Numbered from the stretch's first letter, positions 12,070 to 61,100 are shown. The stretch: 64,000 nt of DNA from Candidatus Daviesbacteria bacterium (GCA_030699125.1 JAUYKM010000007.1:5082-69081), one strand, 5' to 3'. Numbers and translations: made by a program. Notes: generated by a model from the sequence alone, not told the origin.

Positions 12070-12106
<37 letters not shown>

Positions 12107-12143
12107 GCCCTACAGTCCACAAGGACGGCAAGGTTCGGCACCT

Positions 12144-34353: not shown

Positions 34354-35577
34354 ATGAATAATATGCCATTACAAAAAATATTTTTTTCAATTTTTTCCAG
34401 ATACCTTTTAATAGGTATTTCTGCTATGGTCTTACTTTTAGGTGGACAGCAGCTGGTTAATGGAGACCTCTTACAAAGAGGACCGGAATTGGCCTTTGCC
34501 CAAAGTATTGGAGAATGTATTGACGGTAAAACCTATCTTGGAGGAGGAGTATATGTTCCAGGATGTGAGGATAACACGGATGCCGGCCAACCTGGACAAC
34601 CCGGGCAACCTGCAGTAGAAGCTTGTCCAAAAATTGATGTGGTCAGAACAGAACAAGATTGTGTAGGGGATAAATGGTGTACATTTAATGTCTGGCAAGG
34701 ACCCGCAGGAGATGGAAGCTGCACCTATGGTAGAGGCGGAGCTTATGGTTGTCAACTTATTGCCGGAAAATGTGGGTATAACCCTGCTCCTCAACCAGTA
34801 GCACCTCAGCCTGTGGTAACAACTACCCAGCTTCCTGAGTGTCCAAAGCCAGGTCAATCCGGAACTCAGCAAATTTGTGGCGGACAATGGGCTTATGATG
34901 TTTGTACCATCACCGAGAGATTTTCCGATGGCACTCCTGCCAAATACAGATGCAGTTATTCTCAAAATGCTAACTGCGTAGGTACATATTCCTGTCCTGC
35001 TCCGGCTCCGGTGGTAACTACCCAGGCTTGTCAGATTAAAACTGTTAAAACAGAACAAACTTGTATTGGAGCACAACTTTGTACTTTTAATTTCCAGCAA
35101 CAGTCAGATTGTTCTGTGGTTAAAAAAGGCCCATTTAATTGTTTTGAATCAACTCAATGTCGAGCAGTGGTTCAGCCTCCGGTAGTGGTTACCCCGGTGG
35201 TACCTATTGCCCAGGGAGCTGGTCCTGTTAGTGTGACTAACAACAATAACAATACCAACAATAATTCTAATACAAACAATAACAATATATCTGTTAATGC
35301 ATCAGGGGCGAGAGAAACTGTTCGGGAAGTGCAAACTGTGACAGCAGCTGCACCTACTGTGGTTTATGCTCAACAGCCAGCAGTTGCCGGTGTGCAAGTG
35401 AAAGAATTACCTAAAACAGGTTTACCAGTTGCAGCCTGGGCTGCTTTAGCCTTTATCCCTGCCGGATTCAGAATGAGAAAATTCAGAAAAGTTCAAGGTG
35501 AGCTGGAAAATTCACCAGTTTACATTTGGGAAAAAAGAGAGTATGATGCCAACACCTATAGTCATGAGCAGATTTAA
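34354..35577 (+). CDS. secreted Cys-rich repeat protein with LPXTG sortase anchor
   Basis: Signal/TM (LLIGISAMVLLLGG); two Cys-rich repeats (CPKIDVVRTEQDCVGDKWCTFNVWQG / CQIKTVKTEQTCIGAQLCTFNF); Asn-rich tract; LPKTG + hydrophobic stretch + RMRKFRK. Confidence 0.65.
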   Translation: MNNMPLQKIFFSIFSRYLLIGISAMVLLLGGQQLVNGDLLQRGPELAFAQSIGECIDGKTYLGGGVYVPGCEDNTDAGQPGQPGQPAVEACPKIDVVRTEQDCVGDKWCTFNVWQGPAGDGSCTYGRGGAYGCQLIAGKCGYNPAPQPVAPQPVVTTTQLPECPKPGQSGTQQICGGQWAYDVCTITERFSDGTPAKYRCSYSQNANCVGTYSCPAPAPVVTTQACQIKTVKTEQTCIGAQLCTFNFQQQSDCSVVKKGPFNCFESTQCRAVVQPPVVVTPVVPIAQGAGPVSVTNNNNNTNNNSNTNNNNISVNASGARETVREVQTVTAAAPTVVYAQQPAVAGVQVKELPKTGLPVAAWAALAFIPAGFRMRKFRKVQGELENSPVYIWEKREYDANTYSHEQI

Positions 35578-40945: not shown

Positions 40946-40997
40946 ACCCGGATCTGAGCAATGCGAATGCTCTATTCTGCCGTTGAACCATAGGCCC
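40927..40997 (-). tRNA. tRNA-Ala (anticodon CGC), G3:U70
   Basis: Reverse complement GGGCCTATGGTTCAACGGCAGAATAGAGCATTCGCATTGCTCAGATCCGGGTTCAATTCCCGGTGGGTCCA; anticodon loop TTCGCAT. Confidence 0.8.
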
Positions 40998-41014
40998 TGG
41001 GCGAAGTCGAAGGG

Positions 41015-41086
41015 TGGACCCGAGGGGAATTGAACCCCTTATCTTCTCCATGCCATGGAGACGTCGTACCGGTAGACCACGGGCCC
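41015..41086 (-). tRNA. tRNA-Ala (anticodon GGC), G3:U70
   Basis: Reverse complement GGGCCCGTGGTCTACCGGTACGACGTCTCCATGGCATGGAGAAGATAAGGGGTTCAATTCCCCTCGGGTCCA; anticodon loop ATGGCAT; weak D-stem. Confidence 0.7.
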
Positions 41087-43488: not shown

Positions 43489-43500
43489 TAATTTTCCTAT

Positions 43501-43526
43501 TGTCATCCCGCCGAATGGCGGGATCC
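43501..43526. repeat. family D hairpin TGTCATCCCGCC-gaat-GGCGGGATCC in the 5' leader of the O-antigen-ligase-like gene
   Basis: Stem ATCCCGCC/GGCGGGAT. Confidence 0.7.
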
Positions 43527-43556
43527 AATTAACCATGTAAGCTAGGTTTTTAATTA

Positions 43557-43715: not shown

Positions 43716-46700
43716 TCATGGAGAGGGTGGGCCGATGCCGACAGTAGGATTACCGGATACTATTAAGTAATCAAATTCCACATCTTTGGTTTCTGACTTG
43801 GATAGTTTGACGGTAAAGGATCCGTCTGATTTATTAGTAACAGTGATCAGCTGGCCTAAGGGCACTTTAGGGGTGAGCAGGATAACTGAGGTTTCATCAA
43901 TGTGAGGATTTTTAATGGAGGCTTGGATTTGGCCGGCCGGGATAATACCAACTCCTGCTGTTTGATCCTGTTTAACTTTAATTTGATCTACTATGATGGT
44001 TTTAGCCTTAATGGTACCGTCTTTCTCCAGGGTAATTTTTCCATTAAAGATATCTATGGAAGAAGCCAGTTGAGATTTCTGAAGATAGAGGGTGGATAGA
44101 GCATCAATGGTATTCTCACTGAATGATAATGTTCCATCTATAGTTAGGTTTCCGGCAATTAAAGTATTACCTAAGGTGGTAGTACCAAAGGATTTAAGGG
44201 AGTTTTGGATAATGGCATCATAAGCGGTTAAGGATCCCAGGATCTGGGCAGAGGAAGTTACCTTAAGGTCTGCAGTTAAGGTAGCTGAGTCAGAAGCCAG
44301 TAAGATGTCCGGAGGAGTTAAGTCCAGTGCATCAGTGGATCGGTGTATCAGTGTATCATATAAGGCAAGTTCAGCAGAGTCAGAAGCCTCAGAACTGATT
44401 CCAGCAATCTCTGCAGAAGGAGTAGCTTCAGTATTTTCTTCCTTAATTCTTAATTCTAGATTCTTAATTCTAGATTCTAATGTAGCTATCTTGCCGGAAA
44501 GGTCATAAAACTGGACGGTAGAGGATGGAGAATAGATGGTAGTATTTTGAGGATCGAGGGTAGAAGATGGAGAAGAAGAATCTGTAATCAATCTACTATC
44601 TTCTATCTTCAAATTACTATCTTCTATCCCTCTACTATCTATCGTCAATGATGCTACCTTAAGCTTGGGTATAATTAAATTTCCTTCATTATCCATAGTT
44701 AAGGATGAGAAGAAATTCCCCGGATCTGCAAAGCCACTCTTAACATGGACTAGGATCTGGCCACATTCCACACCCGGTGTGTAAGCGCAATTTTCCACAC
44801 CGGGTGTGGAGCCGGTGTTAGCTGAGAAATCCTCTAATGCTTGGCCTATGACTTGTCCTGGTCTGGTGGCTTTGGCTGCTACTCCCGGAATTTCTGATGA
44901 GGTTAGGTAATCTCCTCTTTTAATATCCCCATTGATAGTAGATACTTTGGTCTTAATCTGACCAAGAAGGCCCACAATGGCTTTATTCACACCGGGGGAG
45001 TCAAGGCCCACCCCCGGTGTGTAGTCTGCGTTTCCTACAAAAGCAGCATCTTTGGAGACTACACCAATCAGGTTTTGGTCATAAGGGATGGATGATTTAG
45101 CCACTCCAGAATGACTCACCCCGGGGGAATCAAGGCCCGCCCCCGGGGTGGCTAGGCTTACTAAATCCCCATCCTCAGTTTCCTCTAAAGCATCAAAATA
45201 TTCTGCAAAATCAGCACCGGTAGATTCATAAGCTACTTTATTATCATTAAGCCTGATTCTGCCTACTCTGACTCCGGCGCTGTCACTGGCCACCCCAGCA
45301 TAAAAATCAATAAAATTAGATGAGACTCCGGAAACAGCAGTACCCAAACCTATCCTTAATCCGGATGTATCCGGAGTATCTACTCCTGACAGGTTAACTA
45401 TGGAGGCAGCAGCAGAGGAGGAAGCTTCCTTCTCTATGGTTAATCCATACAAAGGATTGGTAGTACCAACTCCTACATTACCCAAACTTAATATATTAGA
45501 TGTGGATAATACTGAGCCTCCTACAGACAGACTCACACCGGGGGAGTCAAAGCTCGCACCGTACGGTGTGGCTCCTATTGCCAGGTTACCATCCAGATAT
45601 AGTAAACCTGAATCTAATCTCTCAATGAATTGTTCAGCTTCCCACCAGGTCACATTAACCTGCATTAAAATCTGGCCAGGCGGGGCACCAGTACTACTCA
45701 CACCGGGGGAGTCAGAGCCCACCCCCGGTGTGGCTAAGTAGTCCTCCATAGCTCTGCCAATAATCCTTCCTGTTTTAGTTGCTTTCATGGCTTCACCAGT
45801 AGTAGATGAGGAAGTGAGAGGATCACCTGTATAGATTGGTCCGTTCTCCAGATTAACCTTAACCCATACTTGTCCGAGCATTCCTACATTGGCATAGGTA
45901 GGATCAGAATCCCTGTTATCATCAGGATTATTATATGAAGTACCTCTGGTAGTTATGACTCCAATAATATTCTCATCATAGGATGAATTTGACCTTCGCA
46001 CCACCCCGGGGGAGTCAAAGCCCACCCCCGGTGTGCCCGGAGTTAATATCATGACATCCCCGGGTTCAGATGCATCCTCCTGTTTAATATATTCTGAATA
46101 ATCAGCAGTAGTAGCATCTGAATTGAATCTAAAGGTAGTACCGTTGGACTGGACCCAGATACGGCCTTCAGAAGCAATATTACAGGCATCTACACAGCCT
46201 ATGGCAAGCTCACCGTCAACATCTAACCCGTTCGGGGTGGTATTTACATTATCCCCGATTTCCAGAACCAGATTAGTGCTGTCATATTCAAAAGTGGAAT
46301 AACCGGTAATTGAGGATGTCCCATCCCAGACAGCTATCTGAGGAGCAGTTCCTGTACCGGTAAGCCCGGCGCCTGCATCTGCCTCACAAACTACTCTGCC
46401 TGCAGAATCTGTAGTTAGCTTCCCTCCACCTGATAATCCTGAACAATTATAACTTTGCAGCCGCAGGGCAGACCCTACTGTAAGTGAAACACCTATTCCG
46501 GCATTACCGGCCACATCCACTCCGTAATTGGCAGAAGTTCTGCCTATTCCTACATTGCCAAAGACAGATAACCCCAATCCTGGAATAGATGAGAAGGTAT
46601 TCCCTGTCCAGCCAATCCCTACATTACCTCCCACAAATAATGTAGATCCTGGAGTAGATGTACCTATACCTAGGTTTATTCCAACATTACCCCCGTTGAA

Positions 46701-49700
46701 GATTGCAGCTGGAGCTGTATATCCTGCACCAACACCAATCATATTAACTACTAACCCTGGAGTACCTGAACTTACCCCAATCCCCACCATCCCTTGTGAA
46801 TATAATCCTCCTGGACCTATTCCCAACCCTCCACCTACTGTGAGCTGATTACTAATAATAGCTGATTCCCTGACTTGTAAAGCCCCGGCCTCCAATGATC
46901 CAATCTGTGCAGATGTAACATCTATTCCTCCTATATCATAAATCTGAAACTCACAACCTACATTAGTCTGAGCATCACAGGTGTTCGCATTGCTGACTTT
47001 TGTTGCATAGAGGTATCTTCCTGACACAAAAATTGTCTTATCAACATTACCTGCAGGAGCATTCCCTCCATTATCAGCCCCTCCTACAAATATAGGATTG
47101 GATGGATTAGACACATCATATACTTGTATCTCACAACCAATACTTGCAGAGAAACTACATAACCCAGGATTAGCAGCATTACTTAGATACAGATATTTTC
47201 CTGAAACAAAAACAGATCGAATAGCATTAACTACAGAAGCAGTGCTTACTTGTGTTGGAGAATAGGGATTAGATATTCTATAAACATAATATGTTCCACC
47301 ACTATCCCCTAAATAAGCATAACTTCCTGATACAAAAACTGATTCTATGCGATTAGTTCCCCCAGGAGCAACGCTACTTACTCGTATTGGTTTTATAGGA
47401 TTAGAAACATCATAAATATCTAAATAACTAGAGGCTGACCCCCCTCCCACATAAACATATCTTCCAGAAACAAATATAGAAATTGGGAAAGCACTAAGAG
47501 AAATCTGACTTACTAGTAAAGGTGAGGTCGGATCGGAAACGTCAGCAATTTCTAAAATATTAGAGCTATTAGCAATATAAGCATATCTACCTGAAACAAA
47601 TAAAGCAGCAGTACCTCCCGGAAAAGTTAGATTTAATCCTCCCGTGTATAAAGGTTTACTAGGGTTAGATATATCCCAAATTTGAAACTCACAACCATCT
47701 CTGGTAGTAGAAGAACAAGCACCATTGTTTACCCCCCTACCAAGATATAAATAATTTCCTGAAACATAAATAGAAGCAGCGCTACCAGTAAAGCCAGGGG
47801 TACCTGAAATCCCCGCTATAGCAACAGGAGAATTTGGATTAGATATATCATATATTAGAAGGAGACAATTAGTAAGAGTGCTGAGTGTACATGCATTACC
47901 AGTGCTATTATTTTTTCCTACATAAGCATACTTGCCTGAGATAAAGATAGCAGTTCCGTTATTAGTTGATGTAAAACTTGCCCCACCAATATACATAGGA
48001 TTTTGGGGGGTCTGTAACAAACTACCTCCTAATATATCAAGAGCACTTCTGGGGGCAGTAGTTCCAACACCTACATTACCTTGGGAGGTAACTGTAAATG
48101 GTAGTGGATTAGTTAAATTAGTTCCCACATAAGTAGGATTAATTTGGAAAAGCTGGGATGGTGAAGTCCAACCTATACCTATATTACCATTTAGGAATAC
48201 TGCTCCCGGGATATCATTTGAACCAAAGCCTGCTCCCCATAAGTGGAATGGTGCTATGGGACTGCTGGTCCCCAAACCTACATTCCCTTCCACAATCAAC
48301 CCATTGGCAGGAGCATTATAATAGGCAAAGGAGGAACCTATGCCCATAGATCCAAAGACCCCTAATCTGTTGGCTGAGGCAGAGGAACCTATTCCCAGTC
48401 TCATATTGGCATTATCCCAGAAGAATGGATCAGCTCCCTGAACCTGAGTCCCACCGCCATTAAAGAAGGTAACCTGGCCTGCTTCCGGGGTACCAAATGC
48501 CTCAATTCCTGAACCTCCGGCATCAGCATCACAAACTACCCTGCCTGAAGAATCTGTGGTTAACATACCATCACCGCAATTATAGATTTGCAATTGCAAA
48601 GCTGATCCTACTGTTAATGATTGTCCTATACCTACATTACCTACTACATGCAGTCCATATGTTGGGGTGGTGGTGCCAATGCCTACATTGCCAAAGACAG
48701 ATAATCCCAAGGAAGGCATGGCAGCAAAGGTATATCCGGTCCAGCCTATCCCCACATTTCCTCCCACAAAAAGGGTAGATCCCGGAGTAGAAGCCCCAAT
48801 TCCAAGATTTATCCCTACATTCCCTCCATTAAATATAGCAGCCGGAGCTGTATATCCGGTCCCCACTCCTAACATATTTACTACTAATCCTGGAGTCCCG
48901 GATGAAACCCCAATCCCCACCATTCCCTGGCTTAATAATCCTCCTGGTCCTATATTAATACCACTGTTAACTGTTAACTGATTACTGATAACTGCACTTT
49001 CTCTGACCTGTAACCCACCTGCCTCTAAACTACCTATTAATGCACTAGTTACATCTATACCCCCAATGTCATAAATCTGAAACTCACAATCTGTTTTTTT
49101 TGATGAACAGTTAGGACTACTAGAAGCTACACCATCTCCTACATATGCATACCTGCCTGAGACAAAAACTGTATTAGCAGCACTACTGCCAGCATCTGTA
49201 ACATTAGCCCCACCTACATATAATGGATTGTAAGGGTTTGAAACATCATAAACTTGTAATTCACAACCAGTAGAAGTAAAGAAGTTACAAGTTCCAGTAT
49301 TAACAGTTTTTCCTAAATACAAATATCTTCCTGAAACAAAGACAGAGTTAATACCATCTCCAGCAGAAGCTGTAGCTACTTGAGATGGAGAATAAGGATT
49401 GGATGTATCAAATATTCTCAATGTTCCACCACTATCTCCTATATATGCATATCTGCCTGAAACATAAACAGAGTTAGCAGTACCGCTAGTAGAAGTACTA
49501 CTTATCTGTATTGGATTGGTAGGATTAGTTACATCAAATATCTTTAAAGTAGTACCATCTCCTGCATAAGTGTATCTTCCTAAGGTAAATACAGAAGCTA
49601 TAGCATTCCCAGTATTTATTCCTCCTGTATATACAGGAGAAGTGGGGTTAGATACATCATAAATCTGTAATTCACAACCAGTATTTGTAGTAGAGGAACA

Positions 49701-52700
49701 GGTACCACCATTGGCAGCCTTGCCTAAATAGGCATACCTGCCTGATACAAAGACACTCTGGCCAGCATCCCCTCCATCATCTGCCCCACCTATATATAAT
49801 GGATTATTAGGATTGGATACATCATAAACTTGTAATTCACAACCAGTATTGGTGGTGGAGGAACAAGTACCAGCATTACCAGTTTTTCCTAAATATGCAA
49901 ATTTACCAGAAACATAGATACTCTCGACTAGATTAGCTATTTCAAAGCCATTTATAAAAGTTGGATTATTTGGATTAGAGACATCAAAAATCATAAACTC
50001 ACACCCTGTGTTGCTCCCTGCTGTACAACTACCAGTTTCAAATTCTGTTCCAACATAAGCATATTTACCTGAAACAAATATACTTGTTACTACTTGAGAA
50101 TCAGTTGCTTGTAGGTCTGATCCTCCTATAAAGGTAGGATTTTGGGGGGTTTGGAGGAGGGAACCACCTAAAATGTCCAGGGCACTTCTAGGAGCAGTTG
50201 TACCTACACCTACATTTCCCTGTGATGTAACTGTAAAAGGTAGGGGATTAGTTAATTGGGTTCCTACATATGTTGGATTAATCTGGAAGAGTTGGGAAGG
50301 TGAAGTCCAGCCTATACCCACATTGCCATTAAGAAATACTGCTCCCGGAGTTTCATTAGAAGCAAATCCTGCTCCCCAAAGATGGAAAGGAGCAATAGGA
50401 CTGCTGGTCCCCAAGCCTACATTACCCTCTATAACTAGAGAGTTGGAAGCTGGAGTCTGGAAACTGGAAAAAGAGGTACCAATACCCATAGATCCAAAGA
50501 CCCCTAATCTGTTAGCTGAGGCAGAAGAACCTACCCCTAACCTCATTAATTCATTATTCCAGAAGAGAGTATTAGCTCCGGTGACAGATGATCCCCCGTC
50601 AAAGAAGGTAACCTGGCCGGAGGCTGCGGAACCGGAAAGTGTATCTGCGCCGGAATCATCCTGACAAACTACTCTGCCGGAGGAGTCTGTAGTTAACTTA
50701 CCTCCACCACCTAAGCCATTACAAGCATAACCGGAAAGCTGCAAAGCAGACCCTACTGTGAGTGATTGTCCTATTCCTACGTTTCCTACTACCTGCAGTC
50801 CATATGTTGGGGTGGTGGTGCCAATGCCTACATTGCCAAATACAGATAACCCTAATCCTGGCATACTAGCAAAGGTAAATCCGGTCCAGCCAATCCCTAC
50901 ATTACCTCCAACAAATAATGTGGAACCTGGAGTAGAGGATCCTATCCCCAGATTAATCCCTACATTACCTCCATTAAATATAGCTGAGGGAGCAGTATAC
51001 CCTGTACCTACCCCTAACATATTAACCACTAACCCTGGAGTACCTGAACTTACCCCTATCCCTACCATTCCTTGTGATAATAATCCTCCTGGACCTAATC
51101 CTATTCCACCACCTACATAAAGCTGGTTATTTATGAATGCATTTTCCCTAACCTGTAACCCTCCAGCCTCAAGTGATCCAATCTGAGCAGATGTTACATC
51201 TATCCCAGAAATATCAAATACATTTATTCCACAGAAATTAGTATCCGAAGTACAAGTCTTAACGTTATTAAACTGCAGGGTATATAAATACCTACCAGAT
51301 ACAACTATTGCTGTACTACCACCCAAATTAGCAACTCCAGTATCTTTACCTCCTAAGAAAATAGGATTAGCAGGATTTGAGATATCCCAAAGTTGTATTG
51401 TACAACCAGAATTAGTTATGGAATTACACGTAGGATTAGGTAAACCAAGCTTATTTCCTCCCACAAATAAGTAGTTACCAGATACTGCAAAAGAGAATGC
51501 AAAAGCGCTACTAGTTCCAAAAGCATTAGTACTCATAAGAGTGGGACTGGCTGGATTTGAGATATCAAATATTTTGAATTGGCCAGTATTACCAGCATTA
51601 GTATAAGCATATCTACCGGAAACATAAATATCACCACTCTGAGATATTGCACTCATACTAGCTCCTCCTAAATATAAAGGACTGGCTGGATTTGAGATAT
51701 CATAAATCATGAATTCACAGCTAGTATTATCGGTAGAATTACAAGTACCAGCACCATTAGCCTTTCCTACATAAGCATATTTGCCGGAAACGAATAAACC
51801 AACAGCATTAACATTTAGGCTTACTGTTGATACACGAGTAGGATTAATTGGATTGGAGATATCATAAATTTGAAAAGCATGTGCAGTAACAGTAGTTATA
51901 TAAAGATATCTGCCAGATATTTGAAGACCTCTAATACTGCCAGATACAGATACCTGTCCAACAAGAGCAGGGGCTGTTGGATTAGATATATCATAAACTC
52001 GTAAATTAAGTCCTGTTCCAACATAAGCATAATTCCCCACAACATATACTCCACCAACAAGGCTAGAGCCAATGGTTGCACTGCCTATCTGAGTTGGCGT
52101 AGAAGGATTACTAATATCTAAAATTATCAAACCAGTACTATTTAGAATATACAAATATCTACCTGAGACAAAAACTTCATTTTGACCGCTATTATTATTT
52201 TGTCCAGCGGTAATATTATTAGAAGTACCATTAGTTCCCCCAACCCAGGTAAGATTTTGGGGGGTTTGGAGTAAACTACCACCTAAGATATCCAGAGCAG
52301 ACCTAGGAGCAGTAGTTCCTACTCCTACATTACCTTGGGAAGTAACTGTAAAAGGTAGCGGATTAGTTAACTGAGTCCCTACATAAGTTGGGTTTATCTG
52401 GAATAATTGGGATGGAGAAGTCCAGCCAATTCCTATATTACCATTTAAGAATATTCCTGAGACAGTGCCATTACCCCATACATGTAAGGGAGCAATGGGG
52501 GAAGAAGTACCCAGACCTACATTTCCTTCCACAATTAATCCATTAGCAGGAGCATTATAATAGGCAAAAGATGAACCAATCCCTAATGATCCAAAGACCC
52601 CAAGGGTGTTGGCTGAGGCAGAGGAACCTATACCTAATCTCATTAATTCATTATTCCAATAAAATGGAGTTGCACCCTGAACCTGAGTCCCGCCTCCGTC

Positions 52701-55130
52701 AAAGAAGGTGACCTGTCCTGCCTCCGGACTACCTGCTGCCTCAATTCCTGAACCTCCGGCATCAGCATCACAGATTACCCTGCCGGATGAATCTGTGGTT
52801 AACATACCGTCACCGCAATTATAGATTTGCAATTGCAAAGCTGATCCTACTGTTAATGATTGTCCTATTCCTATATTACCTATGACCTGCAGTCCATAAG
52901 TTGGGGAAGTAGTACCTATACCCACATTACCAAATACAGATAACCCTAACCCTGGCATGCTAGCAAATGTATATCCAGTCCAACCAATCCCTACATTTCC
53001 TCCCACTACCAGTGTGGCTCCTGGTGTGGAAGATCCAATTCCTAAATTAATCCCTACATTTCCCCCATTAAAAATGGCAGCCGGAGCAGTATACCCAGTC
53101 CCTATTCCTAACATCTCTACTCTTAACCCAACTGTTCCACTACTTACTCCTATTCCCACCATCCCCTGACTTAATATTCCTCCTGGTCCCACCCCTAATC
53201 CTCCTCCTACTGATAGCTGATTACTAATTATTGCTGATTCCCTGACTTGTAAAGCCCCGGCCTCCAGTGATCCAATCTGTGCAGATGTCACATCTATACC
53301 TGATATATCATATATCTGAAATTCGCAACCGTCATTGGTAGTAGTACAAGACCCACTATTTAAAGCTACTCCAGCATATGCATATCTACCAGAGATAAAG
53401 ATTGATTGAATGTAATTTAAAGTACTCGCCCCTCCTATAAATAGAGGCAGAGCCGGATTAGAAATATCATAAATCTTAAATTCACAACCAGTGCTATCAG
53501 TAGATGAACAAGTTCCAGTGTCTAGACTACTCCCTATATACAAATACTTGCCTGAAACATAGATAGAACGCGCAATCGCCGCAAAGGAGAGACTACTTAT
53601 TTGAGTTGGTGAGTAAGGATTAGATATATCATAAATTTGCATTGAAGCATTACCACTCCGTGCCGCATATGCATATCTACCTGATACAAAAATTGAGCCA
53701 TAATTAATTGATATATCTGCCCCTCCTACAAATACCGGGTTTGTGGGATTAGAAATATCATAAATCTGGAATTCACAACCAGTATTAGTAGTTGAGGAAC
53801 AAGTGCCAGCGTTACTATCTTTTCCTATATAGGCATATCTGCCTGAAACAAAGATAGGGCGATCTATAGAATTATTGCCAATATCATTATCCCCATTATC
53901 TGCCCCTCCTACAAATACCGGGTTTGTGGGATTAGAAATATCATAAATCTGGAATTCACAACCACCAGGAGTAGTAGAATTACAAGTACTGGTATTAAGA
54001 TCTTTCCCTACATATGCATACCTGCCTGAAACAAATACAGCGTTGATTCCTTCAGCTCCATCATCTGCACCACCTACAACCCTGGGTCTTGCCGGATCAG
54101 ATATATCTATAATTTGCAGTTCACAATTATTAAAATTGGTACTGGTACTGGCACAGGCGGCGGCGCTACCAGTTCTTCCTATATAGGCATATCTGCCTGA
54201 AACAAAGACAGCTAGGACGGCTGTGGGATTAATACTACCAACAGTTATTGTTGTTGGAGCAGCAGGATTAGATACATCGATTACCTTAAAACCTCCAGAA
54301 TCTCCAACATAAGCATATTTACCGGAGACAAAAACAGGATGAGGGGCGTTGTTTAAGGTTAGTCCTCCTACAAAGGTGGGATTTTGGGGGGTTTGGAGGA
54401 GGGAACCACCCAGGATATCTAAGGCAGATCTGGGAGCAGTAGTACCAACTCCTACATTTCCCTGGCTAGTAACTACAAAGGGTAAAGGATTAGTTAATTG
54501 AGTACCTACATATGTAGGATTAATTTGGAATAATTGAGAAGGTGATGTCCAGCCAATTCCTACATTTCCTCCCGTTAAATAAGTATTATGAGCCACAATA
54601 TCATTACCCAGAAAATTATGGGTGCCTTCTATTTGCAGATCATATGTTCTGCCTCTTTTTACCTTAGAAACCGAAGCAATTTCTTCCCACCCATCTATGG
54701 TGGCAATAAACATGCCCGGTTTAATGGATTGAACTTTTAACCATTCCCCGTCAATTAATGGCTTGCCACGTACCGACTGGTACTGTGGTGAACCTCTTAA
54801 GTCCTGGTTGCTGTGGCCCATGATTTTGACAAAATAGGGATGTTCTTTGGTGGTCCTGATTCTTTTACCTTGGGAAGTAATCAGCTCGTATAGATCCTGG
54901 ATGCCTTTGAAGAGGGCAGCCTCCACAGTATGCCATTCAAAATAACCTGTCCTCTCATTTAAAGATAGAATCTCATCCCCCGGCTGAATTTGCTCCACCG
55001 GTACTTCTTCCTCAATCCATCCGCCAGCTGGCGGATCGATTTTTTTGATGTTAGCTACCTTCTCCAACTTACCGTCTATGGAGAGTAACATTCCTACATC
55101 CAGGTCTGATACTTTAATTTGGTTTTTCAT
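43716..55130 (-). CDS. giant modular surface protein (3,804 aa): N-terminal Hint/mini-intein domain, four modules of about 700 aa (Gly-rich tail-fibre-like repeats + LVIVD beta-propeller blades), C-terminal tandem about 100-aa domains
   Basis: Hint blocks GKRIRTTKEHPYFV (TxxH) and TYDLQIEGTHNFLGNDIVAHN|T; repeated GNVGIGTTSPxYGLxVxGNVGIG units; blades YAYVGxxxGxxxIYDISNPxxP; uninterrupted 11.4-kb ORF; ATGA overlap with the upstream paralog. Confidence 0.85.
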   Translation of the reverse strand: MKNQIKVSDLDVGMLLSIDGKLEKVANIKKIDPPAGGWIEEEVPVEQIQPGDEILSLNERTGYFEWHTVEAALFKGIQDLYELITSQGKRIRTTKEHPYFVKIMGHSNQDLRGSPQYQSVRGKPLIDGEWLKVQSIKPGMFIATIDGWEEIASVSKVKRGRTYDLQIEGTHNFLGNDIVAHNTYLTGGNVGIGWTSPSQLFQINPTYVGTQLTNPLPFVVTSQGNVGVGTTAPRSALDILGGSLLQTPQNPTFVGGLTLNNAPHPVFVSGKYAYVGDSGGFKVIDVSNPAAPTTITVGSINPTAVLAVFVSGRYAYIGRTGSAAACASTSTNFNNCELQIIDISDPARPRVVGGADDGAEGINAVFVSGRYAYVGKDLNTSTCNSTTPGGCEFQIYDISNPTNPVFVGGADNGDNDIGNNSIDRPIFVSGRYAYIGKDSNAGTCSSTTNTGCEFQIYDISNPTNPVFVGGADISINYGSIFVSGRYAYAARSGNASMQIYDISNPYSPTQISSLSFAAIARSIYVSGKYLYIGSSLDTGTCSSTDSTGCEFKIYDISNPALPLFIGGASTLNYIQSIFISGRYAYAGVALNSGSCTTTNDGCEFQIYDISGIDVTSAQIGSLEAGALQVRESAIISNQLSVGGGLGVGPGGILSQGMVGIGVSSGTVGLRVEMLGIGTGYTAPAAIFNGGNVGINLGIGSSTPGATLVVGGNVGIGWTGYTFASMPGLGLSVFGNVGIGTTSPTYGLQVIGNIGIGQSLTVGSALQLQIYNCGDGMLTTDSSGRVICDADAGGSGIEAAGSPEAGQVTFFDGGGTQVQGATPFYWNNELMRLGIGSSASANTLGVFGSLGIGSSFAYYNAPANGLIVEGNVGLGTSSPIAPLHVWGNGTVSGIFLNGNIGIGWTSPSQLFQINPTYVGTQLTNPLPFTVTSQGNVGVGTTAPRSALDILGGSLLQTPQNLTWVGGTNGTSNNITAGQNNNSGQNEVFVSGRYLYILNSTGLIILDISNPSTPTQIGSATIGSSLVGGVYVVGNYAYVGTGLNLRVYDISNPTAPALVGQVSVSGSIRGLQISGRYLYITTVTAHAFQIYDISNPINPTRVSTVSLNVNAVGLFVSGKYAYVGKANGAGTCNSTDNTSCEFMIYDISNPASPLYLGGASMSAISQSGDIYVSGRYAYTNAGNTGQFKIFDISNPASPTLMSTNAFGTSSAFAFSFAVSGNYLFVGGNKLGLPNPTCNSITNSGCTIQLWDISNPANPIFLGGKDTGVANLGGSTAIVVSGRYLYTLQFNNVKTCTSDTNFCGINVFDISGIDVTSAQIGSLEAGGLQVRENAFINNQLYVGGGIGLGPGGLLSQGMVGIGVSSGTPGLVVNMLGVGTGYTAPSAIFNGGNVGINLGIGSSTPGSTLFVGGNVGIGWTGFTFASMPGLGLSVFGNVGIGTTTPTYGLQVVGNVGIGQSLTVGSALQLSGYACNGLGGGGKLTTDSSGRVVCQDDSGADTLSGSAASGQVTFFDGGSSVTGANTLFWNNELMRLGVGSSASANRLGVFGSMGIGTSFSSFQTPASNSLVIEGNVGLGTSSPIAPFHLWGAGFASNETPGAVFLNGNVGIGWTSPSQLFQINPTYVGTQLTNPLPFTVTSQGNVGVGTTAPRSALDILGGSLLQTPQNPTFIGGSDLQATDSQVVTSIFVSGKYAYVGTEFETGSCTAGSNTGCEFMIFDVSNPNNPTFINGFEIANLVESIYVSGKFAYLGKTGNAGTCSSTTNTGCELQVYDVSNPNNPLYIGGADDGGDAGQSVFVSGRYAYLGKAANGGTCSSTTNTGCELQIYDVSNPTSPVYTGGINTGNAIASVFTLGRYTYAGDGTTLKIFDVTNPTNPIQISSTSTSGTANSVYVSGRYAYIGDSGGTLRIFDTSNPYSPSQVATASAGDGINSVFVSGRYLYLGKTVNTGTCNFFTSTGCELQVYDVSNPYNPLYVGGANVTDAGSSAANTVFVSGRYAYVGDGVASSSPNCSSKKTDCEFQIYDIGGIDVTSALIGSLEAGGLQVRESAVISNQLTVNSGINIGPGGLLSQGMVGIGVSSGTPGLVVNMLGVGTGYTAPAAIFNGGNVGINLGIGASTPGSTLFVGGNVGIGWTGYTFAAMPSLGLSVFGNVGIGTTTPTYGLHVVGNVGIGQSLTVGSALQLQIYNCGDGMLTTDSSGRVVCDADAGGSGIEAFGTPEAGQVTFFNGGGTQVQGADPFFWDNANMRLGIGSSASANRLGVFGSMGIGSSFAYYNAPANGLIVEGNVGLGTSSPIAPFHLWGAGFGSNDIPGAVFLNGNIGIGWTSPSQLFQINPTYVGTNLTNPLPFTVTSQGNVGVGTTAPRSALDILGGSLLQTPQNPMYIGGASFTSTNNGTAIFISGKYAYVGKNNSTGNACTLSTLTNCLLLIYDISNPNSPVAIAGISGTPGFTGSAASIYVSGNYLYLGRGVNNGACSSTTRDGCEFQIWDISNPSKPLYTGGLNLTFPGGTAALFVSGRYAYIANSSNILEIADVSDPTSPLLVSQISLSAFPISIFVSGRYVYVGGGSASSYLDIYDVSNPIKPIRVSSVAPGGTNRIESVFVSGSYAYLGDSGGTYYVYRISNPYSPTQVSTASVVNAIRSVFVSGKYLYLSNAANPGLCSFSASIGCEIQVYDVSNPSNPIFVGGADNGGNAPAGNVDKTIFVSGRYLYATKVSNANTCDAQTNVGCEFQIYDIGGIDVTSAQIGSLEAGALQVRESAIISNQLTVGGGLGIGPGGLYSQGMVGIGVSSGTPGLVVNMIGVGAGYTAPAAIFNGGNVGINLGIGTSTPGSTLFVGGNVGIGWTGNTFSSIPGLGLSVFGNVGIGRTSANYGVDVAGNAGIGVSLTVGSALRLQSYNCSGLSGGGKLTTDSAGRVVCEADAGAGLTGTGTAPQIAVWDGTSSITGYSTFEYDSTNLVLEIGDNVNTTPNGLDVDGELAIGCVDACNIASEGRIWVQSNGTTFRFNSDATTADYSEYIKQEDASEPGDVMILTPGTPGVGFDSPGVVRRSNSSYDENIIGVITTRGTSYNNPDDNRDSDPTYANVGMLGQVWVKVNLENGPIYTGDPLTSSSTTGEAMKATKTGRIIGRAMEDYLATPGVGSDSPGVSSTGAPPGQILMQVNVTWWEAEQFIERLDSGLLYLDGNLAIGATPYGASFDSPGVSLSVGGSVLSTSNILSLGNVGVGTTNPLYGLTIEKEASSSAAASIVNLSGVDTPDTSGLRIGLGTAVSGVSSNFIDFYAGVASDSAGVRVGRIRLNDNKVAYESTGADFAEYFDALEETEDGDLVSLATPGAGLDSPGVSHSGVAKSSIPYDQNLIGVVSKDAAFVGNADYTPGVGLDSPGVNKAIVGLLGQIKTKVSTINGDIKRGDYLTSSEIPGVAAKATRPGQVIGQALEDFSANTGSTPGVENCAYTPGVECGQILVHVKSGFADPGNFFSSLTMDNEGNLIIPKLKVASLTIDSRGIEDSNLKIEDSRLITDSSSPSSTLDPQNTTIYSPSSTVQFYDLSGKIATLESRIKNLELRIKEENTEATPSAEIAGISSEASDSAELALYDTLIHRSTDALDLTPPDILLASDSATLTADLKVTSSAQILGSLTAYDAIIQNSLKSFGTTTLGNTLIAGNLTIDGTLSFSENTIDALSTLYLQKSQLASSIDIFNGKITLEKDGTIKAKTIIVDQIKVKQDQTAGVGIIPAGQIQASIKNPHIDETSVILLTPKVPLGQLITVTNKSDGSFTVKLSKSETKDVEFDYLIVSGNPTVGIGPPSP
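44769..44809. repeat. in-frame palindromic element, variant pair CCACACCCGGTGTG ... CCACACCGGGTGTGG (encodes TPGVENCAYTPGVE)
   Basis: Two copies of a self-complementary 13-mer 12 nt apart inside giant gene 1. Confidence 0.6.
44989..45022. repeat. in-frame 34-bp palindromic element CACACCGGGGG-agtcaaggccca-CCCCCGGTGTG (encodes TPGVGLDSPGV)
   Basis: 11-bp perfect inverted arms; family A. Confidence 0.85.
45117..45150. repeat. family A palindromic element (encodes TPGAGLDSPGV); absent at the homologous site of the paralog
   Basis: Gene 1 ...actca[ccccgggggaatcaaggcccgcccccgggg]tggctaggctt versus gene 2 (56628) ...actca-tggttaggctt: an exact 30-bp in-frame indel. Confidence 0.9.
45534..45570. 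repeat. family A palindromic element, right arm decayed (encodes TPYGASFDSPGV)
   Basis: CACACCGGGGGAGTCAAAGCTCGCACCGTACGGTGTG. Confidence 0.7.
45699..45732. repeat. family A palindromic element (encodes TPGVGSDSPGV)
   Basis: CACACCGGGGGAGTCAGAGCCCACCCCCGGTGTG. Confidence 0.85.
46002..46035. repeat. family A palindromic element (encodes TPGVGFDSPGV)
   Basis: CACCCCGGGGGAGTCAAAGCCCACCCCCGGTGTG. Confidence 0.85.
55019..55036. repeat. family B palindrome ATCCGCCAGCTGGCGGAT in-frame in the Hint domain of giant gene 1 (encodes IDPPAGGW)
   Basis: Same 14-nt core, same reading frame as at 20540. Confidence 0.8.
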
Positions 55131-58100
55131 GGTCCGCTGGCTTGAATAGTAGATTTATCTATTCCTACGATTAAGTAATCAAAAGTAATGTCAAATGTTT
55201 CCGGACGGGCCAGTTGAACCGTAAACTTGCCTTCTTTTTTGTCTATCACGGCTAAGCTCTGAGTTAAGGCAATATCTGCTGTTACAGGAGTAATCAGAAT
55301 GATGGAATCCTCTGCAGCGTATGAGTTTTCAATCAGGGTATTAATCTGGCCTTTAAGGATAGTACCTTCTCCCCGGCTGGTGTCAGGATTAACCTTAATC
55401 TGATCTACTATGATGGTTTTAGCCTTAATGGTACCGTCTTTCTCCAGGGTAATTTTTCCATTAAAGATATCTACTGAGCTAGAAAGTAGAGATTTTTGAA
55501 GATAGAGGGTGGATAGAGCATCAATGGTATTCTCACTGAATGATAAAGTTCCATCTATGGTTAGGTTTCCGGCAATCAGAGTATCTCCTAAGGTAGTTTG
55601 TCCAAATGATTTAAGGGAATTCTGGATAATGGCATCATAAGCTGTTAAGGATCCCAGGATCTGGGCAGAGGAAGTTACTGTAAGGTCTGCAGTAAGAGTG
55701 GCAGAACCGGAAGCAAGTAGGATATCAGGAGGGCTAAGATCTAGCTGATCAAGCTGGGCCAGGATGGAAGAGGAAGATGATTCATTCACTTGAGCCAGGG
55801 CTGCAGAGGAGGTGGCAGTATTGTCATCCTCTTGTAGAAGGGGATCCAATAAACTGTCAGAGTTAGAATTGTCACTATTTGTTAATTGGATTCCTGCATC
55901 CGCAGGAATGACATTTTGGTCCAGGGTGTTTTCCAGCTGAGCTATTCTTTCCTCAAGTGAGGCAATCTTGCCGGAAAGATCATAATATTGGACGGTAGAG
56001 GATGGAGAATAGATGGTAGTATTTTGAGGATCGAGGGTAGAAGATGGGGAAGAAGAATCTGTAATCAATCTGCTATCTTCTATCTTCAAATTACTATCTT
56101 CTATCCCTCTACTATCTATCGTCAATGATGCTACCTTAAGCTTGGGTATTATCAGATTCCCTTCATTATCCATAGTTAAGGATGAGAAGAAATTCCCCGG
56201 ATCTGCAAAGCCACTCTTAACATGGACAGAGATGAGGCCCTGTTTCACCCCGGGGGAGTCTCCCTCGACTTCGCTCGGGACAAGCGGGCCCACCCCCGGG
56301 GTGTTAGCTGAGAAATCCTCCAATGCCTGTCCTATTACCTGTCCTGGTCTGGTGGCTTTGGCTGCTACTCCCGGAATCTCTGATGAGGTTAGGTAATCTC
56401 CTCTTTTAATATCCCCATTGATAGTAGATACTTTAGTCTTAATCTGACCCAGTAAGCCTACAATGGCTTTATTCACACCGGGGGAGTCTCCCTCGACTTC
56501 GCTCGGGACAAGCGGGCCCACCCCCGGTGTGTAGTCTGCGTTTCCTACAAAGGCAGCATCATGGGAAACAACTCCAATCAGGTTTTGGTCATAAGGGATG
56601 GATGATTTAGCCACTCCAGAATGACTCATGGTTAGGCTTACTAAATCCCCATCCTCAGTTTCCTCTAAAGCATCAAAATACTCTGCAAAGTCAGCACCCA
56701 CTGATTCATATGCTACTTTGTTATCATTAAGTCTGATCCTGCCAACTCTCACCCCGGGGGAGTCAGGGCCCGCCCCCGGGGTGGCTACTGCTGCATAGAA
56801 GTCTATGAAGTTGGAGGAAGTGCCGGAGATAGGTGTACCTAAGCCTAATTTAAGGGCAGATGTATCAGGGTTATCAGCTTGAGATAGATTAATAATGGAG
56901 GCTGAGGCTGAGGATGAGGCATCTTTAATTATATCCAGTCCATAAAGGGGATTGGTGGTGCCAATACCAACATTACCTAAGGATAAGATATTGGATGTGG
57001 CAAGGATTGAGCCTTCAACTGCCAGGCTCACCTCGGTGCCGGGAGGACTGCCTCCTATTGCTAGGTTACCATCCAGATATAGTAAGCCTGAATCTAATCT
57101 CTCAATAAATTGTTCAGCTTCCCACCAGGTGACATTAACCTGTATTAAAATCTGGCCAGGCGGGGCACCAGTACTGCTCACCTCGAAGGAGTCAGGGTCC
57201 ACTTCCGAGGTGTAGTTTTCCATGGCCCTGCCTATAATTCTTCCTGTTTTAGTTGCTTTCATGGCTTCACCTTGAGTAGATGAAGAAGTTAGAGGATCAC
57301 CTGTATAAATTGGTCCGTTCTCCAGATTAACCTTAACCCATACTTGGCCGAGCATTCCTACATTGGCATAGGTAGGATCAGATTGTCTATTATCATCCGG
57401 ATTATTATATGAAGTCCCTCTGGTGGTAATTACCCCGATAATATTCTCATCATAGGATGAATTTGACCTTCGCACCACCCCGGGGGAGTCAGTGCCCACC
57501 CCCGGTGTGCCCGGAGTTAATATCATCACATCCCCGGGTTCAGATGCATCTTCCTGTTTAATATATTCTGAATAGTCAGCAGTAGTAGCATCTGAATTGA
57601 ATCTAAAGGTGGTACCGTTAGATCTGGTCCAGATACGGCCGGCAGAGGCAACTGTTCCTGTTGATCCGATGGTAAACTCACCATCTACATCTAAACTATC
57701 TGGAGTTGTGCCTGTATCTCCAATTTCCAGAACCAGATTAGTACTGTCATATTGAAAAGTGGAATAACCGGTAATTGAGGATGCCCCATCCCAGACAGCT
57801 ACCTGAGTAGCAGTTCCTGTACCGGTAATGCCGCCAGCACCTCCGGCATCTGCCTGACAAACTACTCTGCCTGAGGAATCTGTGGTTAATTTACCGCCGT
57901 TGGTTAGGACCCCGCAGTTATATGATGATAACTGCAAAGCTGATCCTACTGTTAAGGATTGTCCAATACCTACATTACCTACTACATGTAATCCATAAGC
58001 TGGGGAAGTGGTTCCAATTCCTACATTACCAAAAACAGACAGTCCCAGTCCCGGCATGGAGGCAAAAGTGTTGGCTGTCCAGCCAATGCCAACGTTGCCT

Positions 58101-61100
58101 CCCACAAAAAGGGTTGATCCAGGAGTAGAAGCCCCTATCCCTAAATTAATCCCCACATTCCCACCATTAAATATAGCTGCTGGAGCTGTATATCCAGTCC
58201 CTACTCCTAACATCTCTACTCTTAATCCTACAGTTCCACTAGATACCCCTATCCCCACCATGCCTTGTGAATATAATCCTCCTGGCCCAATACCTAACCC
58301 TCCACCTACAGTTAACTGATTATTAATAAATGCATTCTCCCTAACTTGTAATCCACCAGCCTCAAGTGATCCAATTAATGCAGATGTAACATCAATCCCC
58401 CCTATATCATAAATCTGAAACTCACACCCTTCACTGTTAATTGCATTACAAGTATTAGAATTAGCAGCTTTACCTGAATAGAGATATCTTCCTGAAACAA
58501 AGATAGCTTTATCAGCCCCAACATTATTCCCCCCATTGTCAGCCCCTCCTACATACAGGGGATTATTTGGATTTGAGATATCATAAACCTGAATCTCACA
58601 ACCAGTAGAGGTGAAAAAATTACATACTCCAGCATTGGCAACTTTCCCCAGATATAAATATTTTCCTGATACAAATACTGATTGAATAGCATCTCCTGTA
58701 GTGATTGTGGATGATTGGGTAGGAGAGTATGGATTGGATACATCAATTATTCTTAATGTCCCACCACTATCTCCTACATAAGCATATCTGCCTGAGACAA
58801 AAATGGAGTTAGTATCAGATGTATAACCAATAATAGTTTTGCCTATTAAGATGGGATTTGTAGGATTAGATATATCATAGATACCCATTTCACCGTCATC
58901 ACAAAGTTCGGGTAAGCCACTAAAACACCTTGCTATATAAGCATATCTACCTGAGACAAAAATGGAGTTAACAGTTAATGCATTCATACTACTACCGCCT
59001 ATATATAATGGGCGTGAAGGATTAGAGATATCGTATATTCTTAATACTCCTCCGTTCTCTACAGTATATGCATACCTGCCTGAAACAAAGACACTAGTGC
59101 TGTTTCCTCCATTATCAGCTCCTCCCACAAAGATGGGATTAGCTGGATTAGATACATCATATATCTGTAACTCACAACCTGTTGAGGTGGTAGAAGAACA
59201 AGTACCAGCATTAGAATTTGTCCCTACATATGCAAATTTACCTGAGATAAATACAGATTGAGCAGTAGAAGTAGTAGAAATACTACTTATTTGTACAGGT
59301 GAGTTAGGATTAGTTACATCAAAGATTTTAAGAGTAGCTCCATCACCTGCATATACATATTTTCCAGAGGCAAACACAGAATTCATGCCATTTCCAGTAT
59401 TTAATCCTCCCACAAAGGTAGGATTCTGGGGGGTTTGGAGGAGGGAACCACCTAGGATATCTAAAGCTGATCTGGGGGCTGTGGTTCCTACTCCAACATT
59501 ACCTTGGGATGTAACAGTAAATGGTAGGGGATTAGTTAACTGTGTCCCTACATATGTAGGATTAATTTGGAATAATTGGGAAGGGGAAGTCCAGCCTATG
59601 CCAATATTTCCATTTTGGAATATTGCCGAACCGGACAAATGAAAGGAAGCAATAGGTGAGCTGGTCCCCAAGCCTACATTACCTTCCACAATTAATCCAT
59701 TGGTGGGAGCATTATAATAGGCAAAGGAGGAACCTATGCCCATAGATCCAAAGACCCCTAATCTGTTAGCTGAGGCTGAAGAACCTACCCCTAACCTCAT
59801 TAATGCATTATTCCAAAATAGAGTATTAGCTCCCGTTACAGAGGATGCCCCGTCAAAGAAGGTAACCTGTCCTGAAGATCCTGAACCTGTTACCCCGCCG
59901 CCTCCGGCATCAGCTGCACAAACCACTCTGCCTGAAGAATCGGTAGTTAATTTCCCACCGCCACCCAACCCTGAACAATTATAGTTTTGCAGCTGCAAAG
60001 CAGATCCTACAGTTAAGCTCTGTCCAATTCCCACATTACCCACTACATCTAATGCATAATTAGCTGTGGTAGTTCCAATCCCCACATTCCCAAAGACAGA
60101 TAATCCTAAGCCCGGCATGGATGCAAAGGTAAATCCAGTCCAACCTATTCCTACATTCCCTCCTACTACGAGAGTTGCTCCCGGAGTAGAAGCACCTATA
60201 CCTAAATTAATCCCTACATTTCCTCCATTAAATATAGCTGCAGGAGCTGTATATCCAGTACCTACTCCTAACATCTCCACATATAATCCAGTGGTTCCAG
60301 AAGATACTCCAATCCCCACCATTCCCTGAGATAATAATCCACCAGGTCCTACTCCCAACCCTCCACCCACTGTTAGTTGATTAGATATTATTGCTGATTC
60401 TCTAACTTGCAGACTACCTGACTCAAGAGAACCTATTAAAGCACTTGTTACATCAATCCCACCTATATCATATATCTGAAACTCACATCCCACATTAGTC
60501 CCTGCATTACAAGTCCCGGCATTGGCAGCTTTTACCATATAAGCATACCTGCCGGAGACAAAGACCTCATTACCATCATCCCCCAAATCAGCCCCGCCCA
60601 CTAAAGCAGGTGAGGAGGGATTGGATATATCATAAATCCTGAATTCGTTACCTGTTACAGTACCAGTTACCACATAAGCATACCTGCCTGAGACAAAGAC
60701 ACCCCAACCATTAGTCCCCAACTCAACCCCGCCCACTAAAGTAGGTGAGGAGGGATTGGATATATCATAAATCCTGAATTCGTTACCTGCGTCATTATCA
60801 AGTACCACATAAGCATATCTTCCTGAGACAAAGACATCACGACTAAAATTTCCTAACTCAACCCCACCCACCTCAATAGGTGAGGAGGGATTGGATATAT
60901 CATAAATCCTGAATTCGTTACCTGTTACAGTACCAGTTACCACATAAGCATACCTGCCTGAGACAAAGACACCCCAACCACCATTCCCCAAATCAGCCCC
61001 GCCCACCTCAATAGGTGAGGAGGGATTGGATATATCATAAATCCTGAATTCGTTACCTGTTACACTACCATGTACCACATAAGCATACCTGCCTGAGACA

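Follow-up and report, generated by a model that had tools for sequence, protein, structure and literature searches.

The Rickettsia palindromic elements (RPEs) were reportedly described by Ogata et al. in 2000. Bacteria of the Candidate Phyla Radiation (CPR) have small genomes, which are usually seen as streamlined. Here, we report on a 64-kb stretch of DNA (below, the window) from a metagenome-assembled genome (MAG) of Candidatus Daviesbacteria (Patescibacteria/CPR), in which two tandem giant genes carry eleven short GC-rich hairpin elements. These elements probably belong to a low-copy family of miniature GC-rich hairpin repeats that is native to Daviesbacteria and related Patescibacteria and that behaves like REPs, RPEs and mitochondrial GC clusters. 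As with RPEs, these are palindromic repeats that lie in frame inside functional genes and also in spacers, that add short peptides at fold-compatible positions, that are present in some orthologues and absent from others, that decay in place and that have no known transposase. The Daviesbacteria elements differ from RPEs in being 34-40 bp long versus roughly 100-150 bp for RPE-1, in occurring in another phylum, in lacking a CGTC tag, in their much lower copy number and in a self-complementary register that gives TPG...PGV from both orientations. To our knowledge, there is no report of RPEs in which the stem covaries and the loop is inverted at a single orthologous site. Common descent with RPEs is unlikely, given the size of the elements and their host phylum. 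The initial annotation of the window had proposed mobile in-frame elements of the Rickettsia type; this comparison holds as to behaviour and not as to family membership.

REPs and REPINs (PMC3733652, PMC3116915) are imperfect GC-rich palindromes of 20-40 bp, in which a stem of 5-13 bp closes a loop of 2-20 nt; the 34-bp element, with its 11-bp stem and 12-nt loop, falls within these dimensions. They form spacer clusters, as in the co387_691 lineage discussed below, and have occasional in-frame genic copies, notably in DNA-repair genes, which can be compared with the UvrD copy found here. RPE-4 and RPE-6 have been equated with CGTC-type REPs, and intragenic REPs are known in Opitutus, Rickettsia and others, often in uvrA/uvrB (PMC3733652). 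The behaviour is thus not, as had been supposed, well documented only in Rickettsia; full-text literature searches returned no report of it in CPR genomes, in agreement with what the initial annotation had stated. The unpaired GTAG/CGTC end tag of REPs (PMC3733652) was present in the flanks of none of the 22 correctly placed copies (23 listed); the elements start with CAC and finish with GTG. Whereas REPs are high-copy and mainly extragenic, all 11 window copies are intragenic, and spacer clusters were seen only in the co387_691 lineage. A RAYT (Y1 HUH) transposase gene was seen neither in the window nor at the loci examined. In yeast and other mitochondria, GC clusters such as GC42 (PMC4478555) are likewise GC-rich hairpins with a constrained stem in an AT-rich genome, and they share with the Daviesbacteria elements a sporadic presence off the phylogeny, linked flanking variants and merging or nesting, together with the spread by homologous recombination that we propose below for the Daviesbacteria family. 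However, GC clusters are organellar and of high copy number, and their loops vary more than their stems, whereas the Daviesbacteria loops are conserved and the elements are translated within large bacterial proteins.

The host genes in the window are as follows.

43716..55130, minus strand: giant gene 1, an open reading frame (ORF) of 3804 amino acids (MDP3973350.1, Ca. Daviesbacteria; locus tags Q8P92_; on a contig of 72,967 bp)
55127..63964, minus strand: giant gene 2, an ORF of 2945 amino acids, tandem paralogue of gene 1

The type-1 unit (34 bp) consists of two 11-bp complementary arms (CACNNCGNNGG and CCNNCGNNGTG) on either side of a 12-nt loop whose sequence, TGGGCYYTGACT or the reverse complement of this, is conserved. 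It had been annotated as a perfect 34-bp palindrome; in fact, the inverted arms flank a non-palindromic loop, and two window copies have one arm mismatch each. Exact and fuzzy searches with the canonical pattern CACMCCGGGGG-N12-CCCCCGGKGTG retrieved six copies in the 64 kb. The same searches found two 58-bp copies whose loops carry an identical 26-for-2 nt exchange (net 24 bp), which bears out the annotated nested insert shared by two gene 2 copies. Zero matches to the pattern are expected in shuffled sequence. A covariance model made from family members and scanned over the 64 kb with filters off added 57179-57212 (48 bits), 45534-45570 (27 bits) and a type-2 relative at 44769-44808. The eleven elements, whose number and location in the C-terminal parts of both giant genes had been annotated correctly, comprise six canonical copies, two composites, one arm-variant, one decayed copy and one type-2 copy, distributed over seven sites in the two paralogues. 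All are in one orientation and in one frame and read TPG[VA]GxDSPGV or a derivative, so that the reading frame is kept and a peptide of the expected TPGVG-x-DSPGV type is added. The G+C content of the elements is 74%, versus 40% for the window. When folded as DNA hairpins, type 1 reached -13.4 and -13.9 kcal/mol and type 2 reached -18.1 kcal/mol; the z-scores ranged from -3.1 to -5.9 (for the 34-bp element at -13.4 kcal/mol, z = -3.7). The sites are occupied as listed here.

Site 1, gene 1: 46002..46035, minus strand, type-1, TPGVGFDSPGV, one arm mismatch
Site 1, gene 2: 57476..57509, minus strand, type-1, TPGVGTDSPGV
Site 2, gene 1: 45699..45732, minus strand, type-1 canonical, TPGVGSDSPGV
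Site 2, gene 2: 57179..57212, minus strand, arm-variant CACCTCGGAAG...CTTCGAGGTG, reads TSEVDPDSFEV
Site 3, gene 1: 45534..45570, minus strand, decayed 37-bp copy, reads TPYGASFDSPGV
Site 3, gene 2: 57029-57049, 21-bp remnant
Site 4, gene 1: 45270-45287, probably unoccupied, SDSAGV, like outgroup P0002
Site 4, gene 2: 56750..56783, minus strand, type-1, TPGAG subfamily
Site 5, gene 1: 45117..45150, minus strand, type-1, TPGAG subfamily, exact 30-bp insertion 45119-45148
Site 5, gene 2: 56621-56635, empty, intact CCA/TGAG; all outgroups also empty
Site 6, gene 1: 44988..45021, minus strand, type-1 canonical, TPGVGLDSPGV
Site 6, gene 2: 56474..56531, minus strand, 58-bp composite with a second small hairpin nested in the loop (56489-56514), reads TPGVGPLVPSEVEGDSPGV
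Site 7, gene 1: 44767..44810, minus strand, type-2, two inverted 13-mers CACACCSGGTGTG with a 14-nt loop, reads TPGVENCAYTPGV
Site 7, gene 2: 56246..56303, minus strand, composite as at site 6 (nested part 56261-56286), replaces the type-2 element of gene 1

Alignment of the paralogues confirmed the exact 30-bp insertion that had been annotated in gene 1 at site 5, since gene 2 is unbroken there. At site 4, the reported presence of a copy in gene 2 and its absence from gene 1 also stand. The SDSAGV of gene 1 had been taken for a decayed remnant; since outgroup P0002 has SGDTGGV at this position, it is probably the ancestral unoccupied sequence. The copies at 45117 and 56750, each specific to one paralogue, are alike in a diagnostic variant of the loop, GCGGGCC (TPGAG), and in their flanks, TAGCC/.../AG, which points to recent copying from one source. 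The copy at site 2 of gene 2, interpreted earlier as decayed with compensatory arm changes, is a member of a subfamily with variant arms (CACCTCGRRGG/CCYYCGAGGTG); this subfamily is common in other Daviesbacteria, where G5-3D genes are among its hosts.

A search with the C-terminal region of gene 1 retrieved 68 homologues, none of which has the element peptide; where names are given, all are from CPR. The closest full-length relatives are P0001 (44% identical), P0002 and P0007, and in the alignment sites 1, 2, 5 and 6 are gaps in all three. Because the outgroups have gaps at these sites, the type-1 copies of the giant genes are, as judged from the alignment, insertions.

The strict 34-mer pattern was next applied to 596 Gb of genomes (one genome per GTDB species) and to JGI metagenomes, and yielded 15 loci in the former set and 16 in the latter. 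Non-chance matches have a common loop consensus, YRRGCYYTGAYT or its reverse complement; the loops of matches in high-GC genomes (Nocardioides, Streptomyces and others) are unrelated, and these matches were treated as chance and not as family members. Type-1 copies were found in a 248-amino-acid G5-3D wall-protein gene (L008) and in a 982-amino-acid LCAT/lipase-like gene of another Daviesbacteria genome (L015). In the L011 gene, whose flanks align with those of L015, the element occupies the same position; in both of these genes, the orientation is opposite, and the element reads TPGESK[LP]TPGV. Homologues of the giant genes, L014 (twice) and L019, carry copies at positions that are empty in the window. 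In the MAG co387_691 and matching metagenome contigs, the copies lie in short-ORF or non-coding DNA, and several are clustered with other small hairpin repeats (L010, 2.6-3.9 kb and 4.6-5.3 kb). Confinement to the two giant genes, which had been named as the outcome that would speak against mobility, was therefore not observed, copies being present elsewhere in unrelated genes and in non-coding DNA.

The other small hairpin repeats among the type-1 spacers of the co387_691-like lineage are TCGACAGGC-N12-GCTTGTCGA and GRACCTGCCTG-CCGG-CAGGCAGGTTC (L010:5104-5133 and 5208-5237; L024:2363-2392; L029:1986-2011 and 3618-3643), and this lineage seems to have several proliferating palindromes. A terminator role of the spacer copies was rejected, as a T-run precedes the hairpin and an A-run comes after it. 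Viral contigs contained 0 matches to the canonical pattern and 0 to the arm-variant pattern; a 16-nt loop probe had 5 matches there, all armless and so attributed to chance. The MAGs binchicken_co251_142 (L008, L011, L014) and co387_691 (L001, L004, L006, L010) are titled "uncultured Gammaproteobacteria" in public records. For the co251_142 G5-3D protein, more than 100 orthologues with 70-81% identity were retrieved, every named one of which is from Daviesbacteria or Patescibacteria, and the best named relative of the co387_691 ThyX, at 56% identity, is from Patescibacteria; the neighbours of the latter gene in co387_691 are a sortase and a DUF11 protein. Cross-phylum transfer, as read from the titles, was rejected on these grounds, and the Gammaproteobacteria label on both MAGs is probably wrong.

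The G5-3D gene presents a single site in many states. In a sample of 120 orthologues that are 70-81% identical, most proteins are 231 amino acids long and have an uninterrupted KITYSK-DGEEY. An insert is present at exactly one site, between the two domains, in 32 of 120 by a length criterion and in about 38 of 120 by eye. The inserts include TPGVGFDSPGV, TSEVGFDSSEV, TSKVGFDSFEV and TSGVGSDSPEV, as well as the flipped-loop versions TSEESKPTSEV, TSKESGPAFEV and TSGEPEPTPEV. In the composite insert TSKVGSLVPSVVEGDSFEV, the nested piece is the same as in the window's TPGVGPLVPSEVEGDSPGV, and a composite with the window's nested insert was found again in L038. A different palindrome, CCTGCCTGCCGGCAGGCAGG, is nested in a type-1 loop at L029:494-547 and stands alone at L029:1986 and 3618. 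Comparison of the DNA of nine occupied or derived alleles and two empty ones showed that the arms are perfect or near-perfect and yet different among alleles. The L042 allele has collapsed to a lone 13-mer, TACCTCGGAGGTG. The loop of L037 and L041 is the exact reverse complement of that of L034 and L035, at the same site and with the same flanks. Hairpin-associated small inversions in chloroplast spacers, reportedly described by Kelchner and Wendel in 1996, are similar in that a loop between short inverted repeats flips recurrently at one site regardless of phylogeny; those inversions are single-site and non-coding, whereas the Daviesbacteria family is dispersed.

The occupied G5-3D state did not cluster in the protein phylogeny, as analyzed with a neighbour-joining tree and distance tests: the p-distance is 0.215 between filled alleles versus 0.207 between filled and empty ones, and filled alleles have another filled allele as their nearest neighbour in 19% of cases versus 26% on permutation. 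With one 227-column protein, gain and loss are inseparable from recombination, and a demonstration of single origin by phylogeny was given up. All nine sequenced occupied or collapsed alleles have a Ser codon 12 nt downstream, which is missing in both sequenced empty alleles; at the protein level, the same Ser occurs in some empty orthologues. This linkage resembles the co-conversion tracts of yeast GC42 (PMC4478555). We infer that the G5-3D insert had one origin and then spread or was lost through homologous recombination; repeated insertion is also possible.

Covariation of the stem was analyzed in 22 distinct type-1 copies. As many as 97.5% of the stem cells are paired, and changes on both sides occur in 5 of the 11 pairs (22 cells). 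None of 500 shuffles reached the observed values, and slid controls were 50-63% paired. Since the copies are related and some are orthologous, the cell counts overstate the number of independent events; still, several arm types are present, both within and across sites. In the loop, 7 of 12 columns are invariant or nearly so. Correlated residues in the orthologue alignment, G-P, E-S and K-F, mirror the arm triplets GGG/CCC, GAG/CTC and AAG/CTT.

The canonical element is open in 5 of 6 frames, and its alternative frames read His-, Arg- and Trp-rich strings; all genic type-1 sites (12/12) are in the TPG...PGV frame. The codon series ACN-CCN-GGN-GTN is its own reverse complement, and therefore both orientations read TPG...PGV. 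In an AlphaFold model (mean predicted local distance difference test score, pLDDT, 72.8; module cores >90), all seven positions fall into coil or turn between β-strands, with few isolated bridge residues. The biases in frame and position are most simply explained, we infer, by selection on which insertions survive. With respect to RPEs, in-frame insertion that varies between homologues was found at site 5, in G5-3D and in UvrD, and placement in fold-compatible surface loops is predicted by the AlphaFold model, where the flanking modules have pLDDT >90.

The type-2 unit consists of two inverted 13-mers, CACNNCSGNNGTG, and a loop of about 14 nt (RARAAWWGCGVTTA); each 13-mer CACACCSGGTGTG is palindromic by itself. 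At site 7, P0001 has the type-2 element of gene 1, and the DNA of the 13-mers is identical even at synonymous positions (L032:1117-1162). Other copies are found in a Wzy_C-like gene of L033, in another reading frame (the orthologue in the window, 41150..43528, has no copy), in the uvrD/G5-3D spacer of L042 and in the L014 giant gene. A further copy, with a longer loop of 23-26 nt, lies inside UvrD of L008 and adds 17 amino acids; this site is empty in L035, L037 and L038 and holds a remnant in L040. UvrD and thioredoxin of some Daviesbacteria also contain inteins (L039:6908-9973; L008:805-2505; L040:6350-7945), which their neighbours lack at the same locus; the UvrD/G5-3D neighbourhood thus harbours selfish in-frame inserts of a second kind.

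The family thus displays dispersal, insertion polymorphism, covariation, loop flipping, nesting, collapse and frame bias, and its distinctive features are the codon-symmetric register, loop inversion and stem covariation at one orthologous site. Non-homologous, illegitimate insertion has put copies into unrelated coding and non-coding sites, where they have been remodelled: the loop is inverted, other small palindromes become nested in it, or internal deletion leaves a 13-bp palindrome. Occupied alleles would then move between lineages by homologous recombination with a short co-conversion tract. A genic insertion would persist only if its net length is a multiple of three, if it falls in a loop or linker and if it is in the self-complementary register, which gives a small flexible peptide such as TPGVGxDSPGV or TPGESKPTPGV. 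The arms may stay complementary through hairpin-templated correction (template switching within quasi-palindromes), or mobilization may need foldable copies. As for the copying route, we favour rare illegitimate copying, via repair and template switching or by a hairpin-specific enzyme, which would be followed by recombination and intragenic gene conversion.

Several kinds of transposable or diversifying elements were considered for comparison. Miniature inverted-repeat transposable elements have units of 50-500 bp and target-site duplications, while the unit here is 34-58 bp, contains little beyond the inverted repeat and has no consistent direct repeats where it joins its flanks. PARCELs (palindromic elements that code for amphipathic repeats) are also coding DNA with dyad symmetry, in surface proteins of small-genome bacteria and with a punctate distribution; unlike the elements described here, they are tandem arrays of a 25-residue amphipathic domain rather than solitary 11-residue loop inserts, and are not found in spacers. 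A target of a diversity-generating retroelement was rejected, as there is no reverse transcriptase among the window ORFs and the copies differ by paired stem changes and not by A-to-N changes. A DNA uptake sequence was dropped on copy number. At the gathering score, Rfam 15 had only rRNA and tRNA matches in the window.

Could the elements be an ordinary protein repeat, i.e. a TPGVGxDSPGV linker duplicated within one gene family, with palindromy as a by-product of its codons? The window taken by itself fits such a scheme, as its copies are found only in two paralogues, in one orientation and one frame; Thr-Pro-Gly-Val codons are self-complementary by nature, and the host domain has a native S-x-TPGVAMKA motif. 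Yet the element is also found in proteins that are not homologous, outside coding DNA and in the opposite orientation, host-domain homologues exist that have no element, the G-P, E-S and K-F swaps are intelligible only at the nucleotide level, and conservation of the arms extends to synonymous positions between proteins that are only 44% identical. We regard the protein repeat as refuted by the copies beyond the gene family and by the empty outgroup sites, and give it next to no credence. Hardly more credible is a scheme in which each palindrome arose independently where it now stands, through repair synthesis of the fold-back (snap-back) type or through template switching, without a master copy. 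Breaks are known to give rise to short inverted duplications of a templated kind (PMC11724301), quasi-palindrome correction could account for perfect arms, and the absence of target-site duplications would be expected. However, unrelated genes and genomes have in common the non-palindromic loop TGGGCYYTGACT and the arm consensus, which separate fold-back events could not bring about; different genes contain composites whose nested insert is identical, and the loop does not match the local flanks at the sites.

A functional hairpin selected by the host, either the target of a structure-specific recombinase or nuclease in the service of paralogue exchange (adhesin or antigen variation) or an mRNA or DNA structure at which transcription or translation pauses between folding units, appears unlikely, though it deserves more weight than the two schemes above. 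Hairpin recombination sites for adhesin variation had been the alternative offered in the initial annotation, and the observations do not require them. A covarying stem with a conserved loop is the usual mark of a recognized hairpin, the element has been kept at one orthologous site in proteins that have diverged by 20-30%, and elements are placed between structural units of the host domain. The paralogue C-terminal parts (gene 1 from residue 2901, gene 2 from residue 2001) have a mosaic DNA identity of 80.6%, with one strongly divergent block, at about 45570-45290, that is bounded by sites 3 and 4, and at site 7 a copy of the site-6 composite has replaced the resident element. But the remaining mosaic block boundaries are free of elements, the same element occurs in unrelated genes and non-coding clusters, the two loop orientations at one site give complementary RNAs and different peptides, and most orthologues of each host gene have no element. 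We do not favour host function, since most orthologues can dispense with the element, which is found in unrelated contexts and works in both orientations.

A family of miniature mobile hairpin repeats therefore remains the reading we prefer, and there are observations that weigh against it. The covariance model gave no significant match outside the two giant genes, the other 52 kb of the window are free of copies, and 41 kb of unselected Daviesbacteria DNA had none either; given these results, the copy number is low, and genome-wide transposition is rare at best. The strict 34-mer pattern used for the large searches overlooks arm variants. Pfam scans of 30 window ORFs and of the ORFs beside the non-coding clusters detected no transposase, reverse transcriptase or HUH protein and no nuclease candidate for mobilization. 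The junctions have neither target-site duplications nor a clear consensus of the target, and AGCC/.../AGT(C) recurs weakly at some sites. Many of the window copies could have been spread within the gene pair by gene conversion. Finally, the element has persisted for long at one orthologous site while its stem covaries and its loop is conserved, which exceeds what simple selfish decay would give and would fit a host function too. A more speculative extension, which we consider quite improbable, is that the hairpin, with its covarying stem, conserved loop, codon symmetry and use in either orientation, is the recognition module of a structure-specific DNA machinery of Patescibacteria, for example a hairpin-binding single-strand transposase or recombinase. 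If this were true, cassettes would be inserted, flipped and exchanged by the machinery, which the cell would use for remodelling loops of its surface and cell-wall proteins, i.e. programmed loop editing and not passive junk.

The host proteins have a layered organization. In gene 1, a Hint-like domain lies at the N-terminus, LVIVD repeats are present, and at the C-terminus there are two modules that resemble the phage phi29 gp12 autochaperone and host the elements; LVIVD/beta-propeller repeats are present in both giant genes, and the beta-rich module occurs in two copies in the C-terminal part of each. PF11962 (Peptidase_G2 autochaperone domain) was found in homologues of this module, and the modelled module is similar to the phi29 gp12 C-terminal fragment 3gqh_A (Foldseek E = 8.6e-4, 20% identity). 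The Hint/intein-like domain comprises residues 1-187 of gene 1 (54570-55130) and ends with IVAHN/TY; the start of gene 1 overlaps the stop of gene 2 by 4 bp. The same layout is seen in the Microgenomates contig L033:1-5513, where tandem ORFs each open with a Hint domain and there is synteny with Rho and the Wzy_C gene. P0005, the ORF of L033 that was examined, ends in the same C-terminal module and carries the wrong name "replicative DNA helicase". Within gene 2, positions 60532-61267 form a 135-bp tandem repeat (5.5 copies, 86% matches), each unit of which has a hairpin with a 9-bp stem, CCCACCTCA-ATAGG-TGAGGAGGG.

Elsewhere in the window, the gap upstream of ORF 34354..35577 contains an inverted repeat (34155-34215; 26-nt arms, 85% complementary, 9-nt spacer) that is unrelated to the hairpin family. 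The 23S rRNA gene (8889-13249) is 4361 nt long versus 2925 nt for the model, which corresponds to about 1.4 kb of insertions, and one of these encodes a LAGLIDADG endonuclease (ORF 11020..11496); this suggests that the insertions are of the intron type, a frequent feature of CPR rRNA genes. Two adjacent tRNA-Ala genes (CGC and GGC anticodons) are located at 40926-41086, beside the Wzy_C-like gene, and a third (TGC) lies upstream of the 23S gene.

At a practical level, DNA-level repeats in giant CPR surface proteins can mislead domain and repeat annotation. The G5-3D site constitutes a natural experiment, in which one site of a conserved 231-amino-acid protein is found empty, occupied, flipped, nested or collapsed across more than 100 lineages, and which offers a test of how such elements spread (transposition versus recombination with co-conversion), how stems stay complementary and how peptides enter loops. 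In-gene palindromes that survive by being translated are not peculiar to Rickettsia or to organelles and are also found in the Candidate Phyla Radiation.

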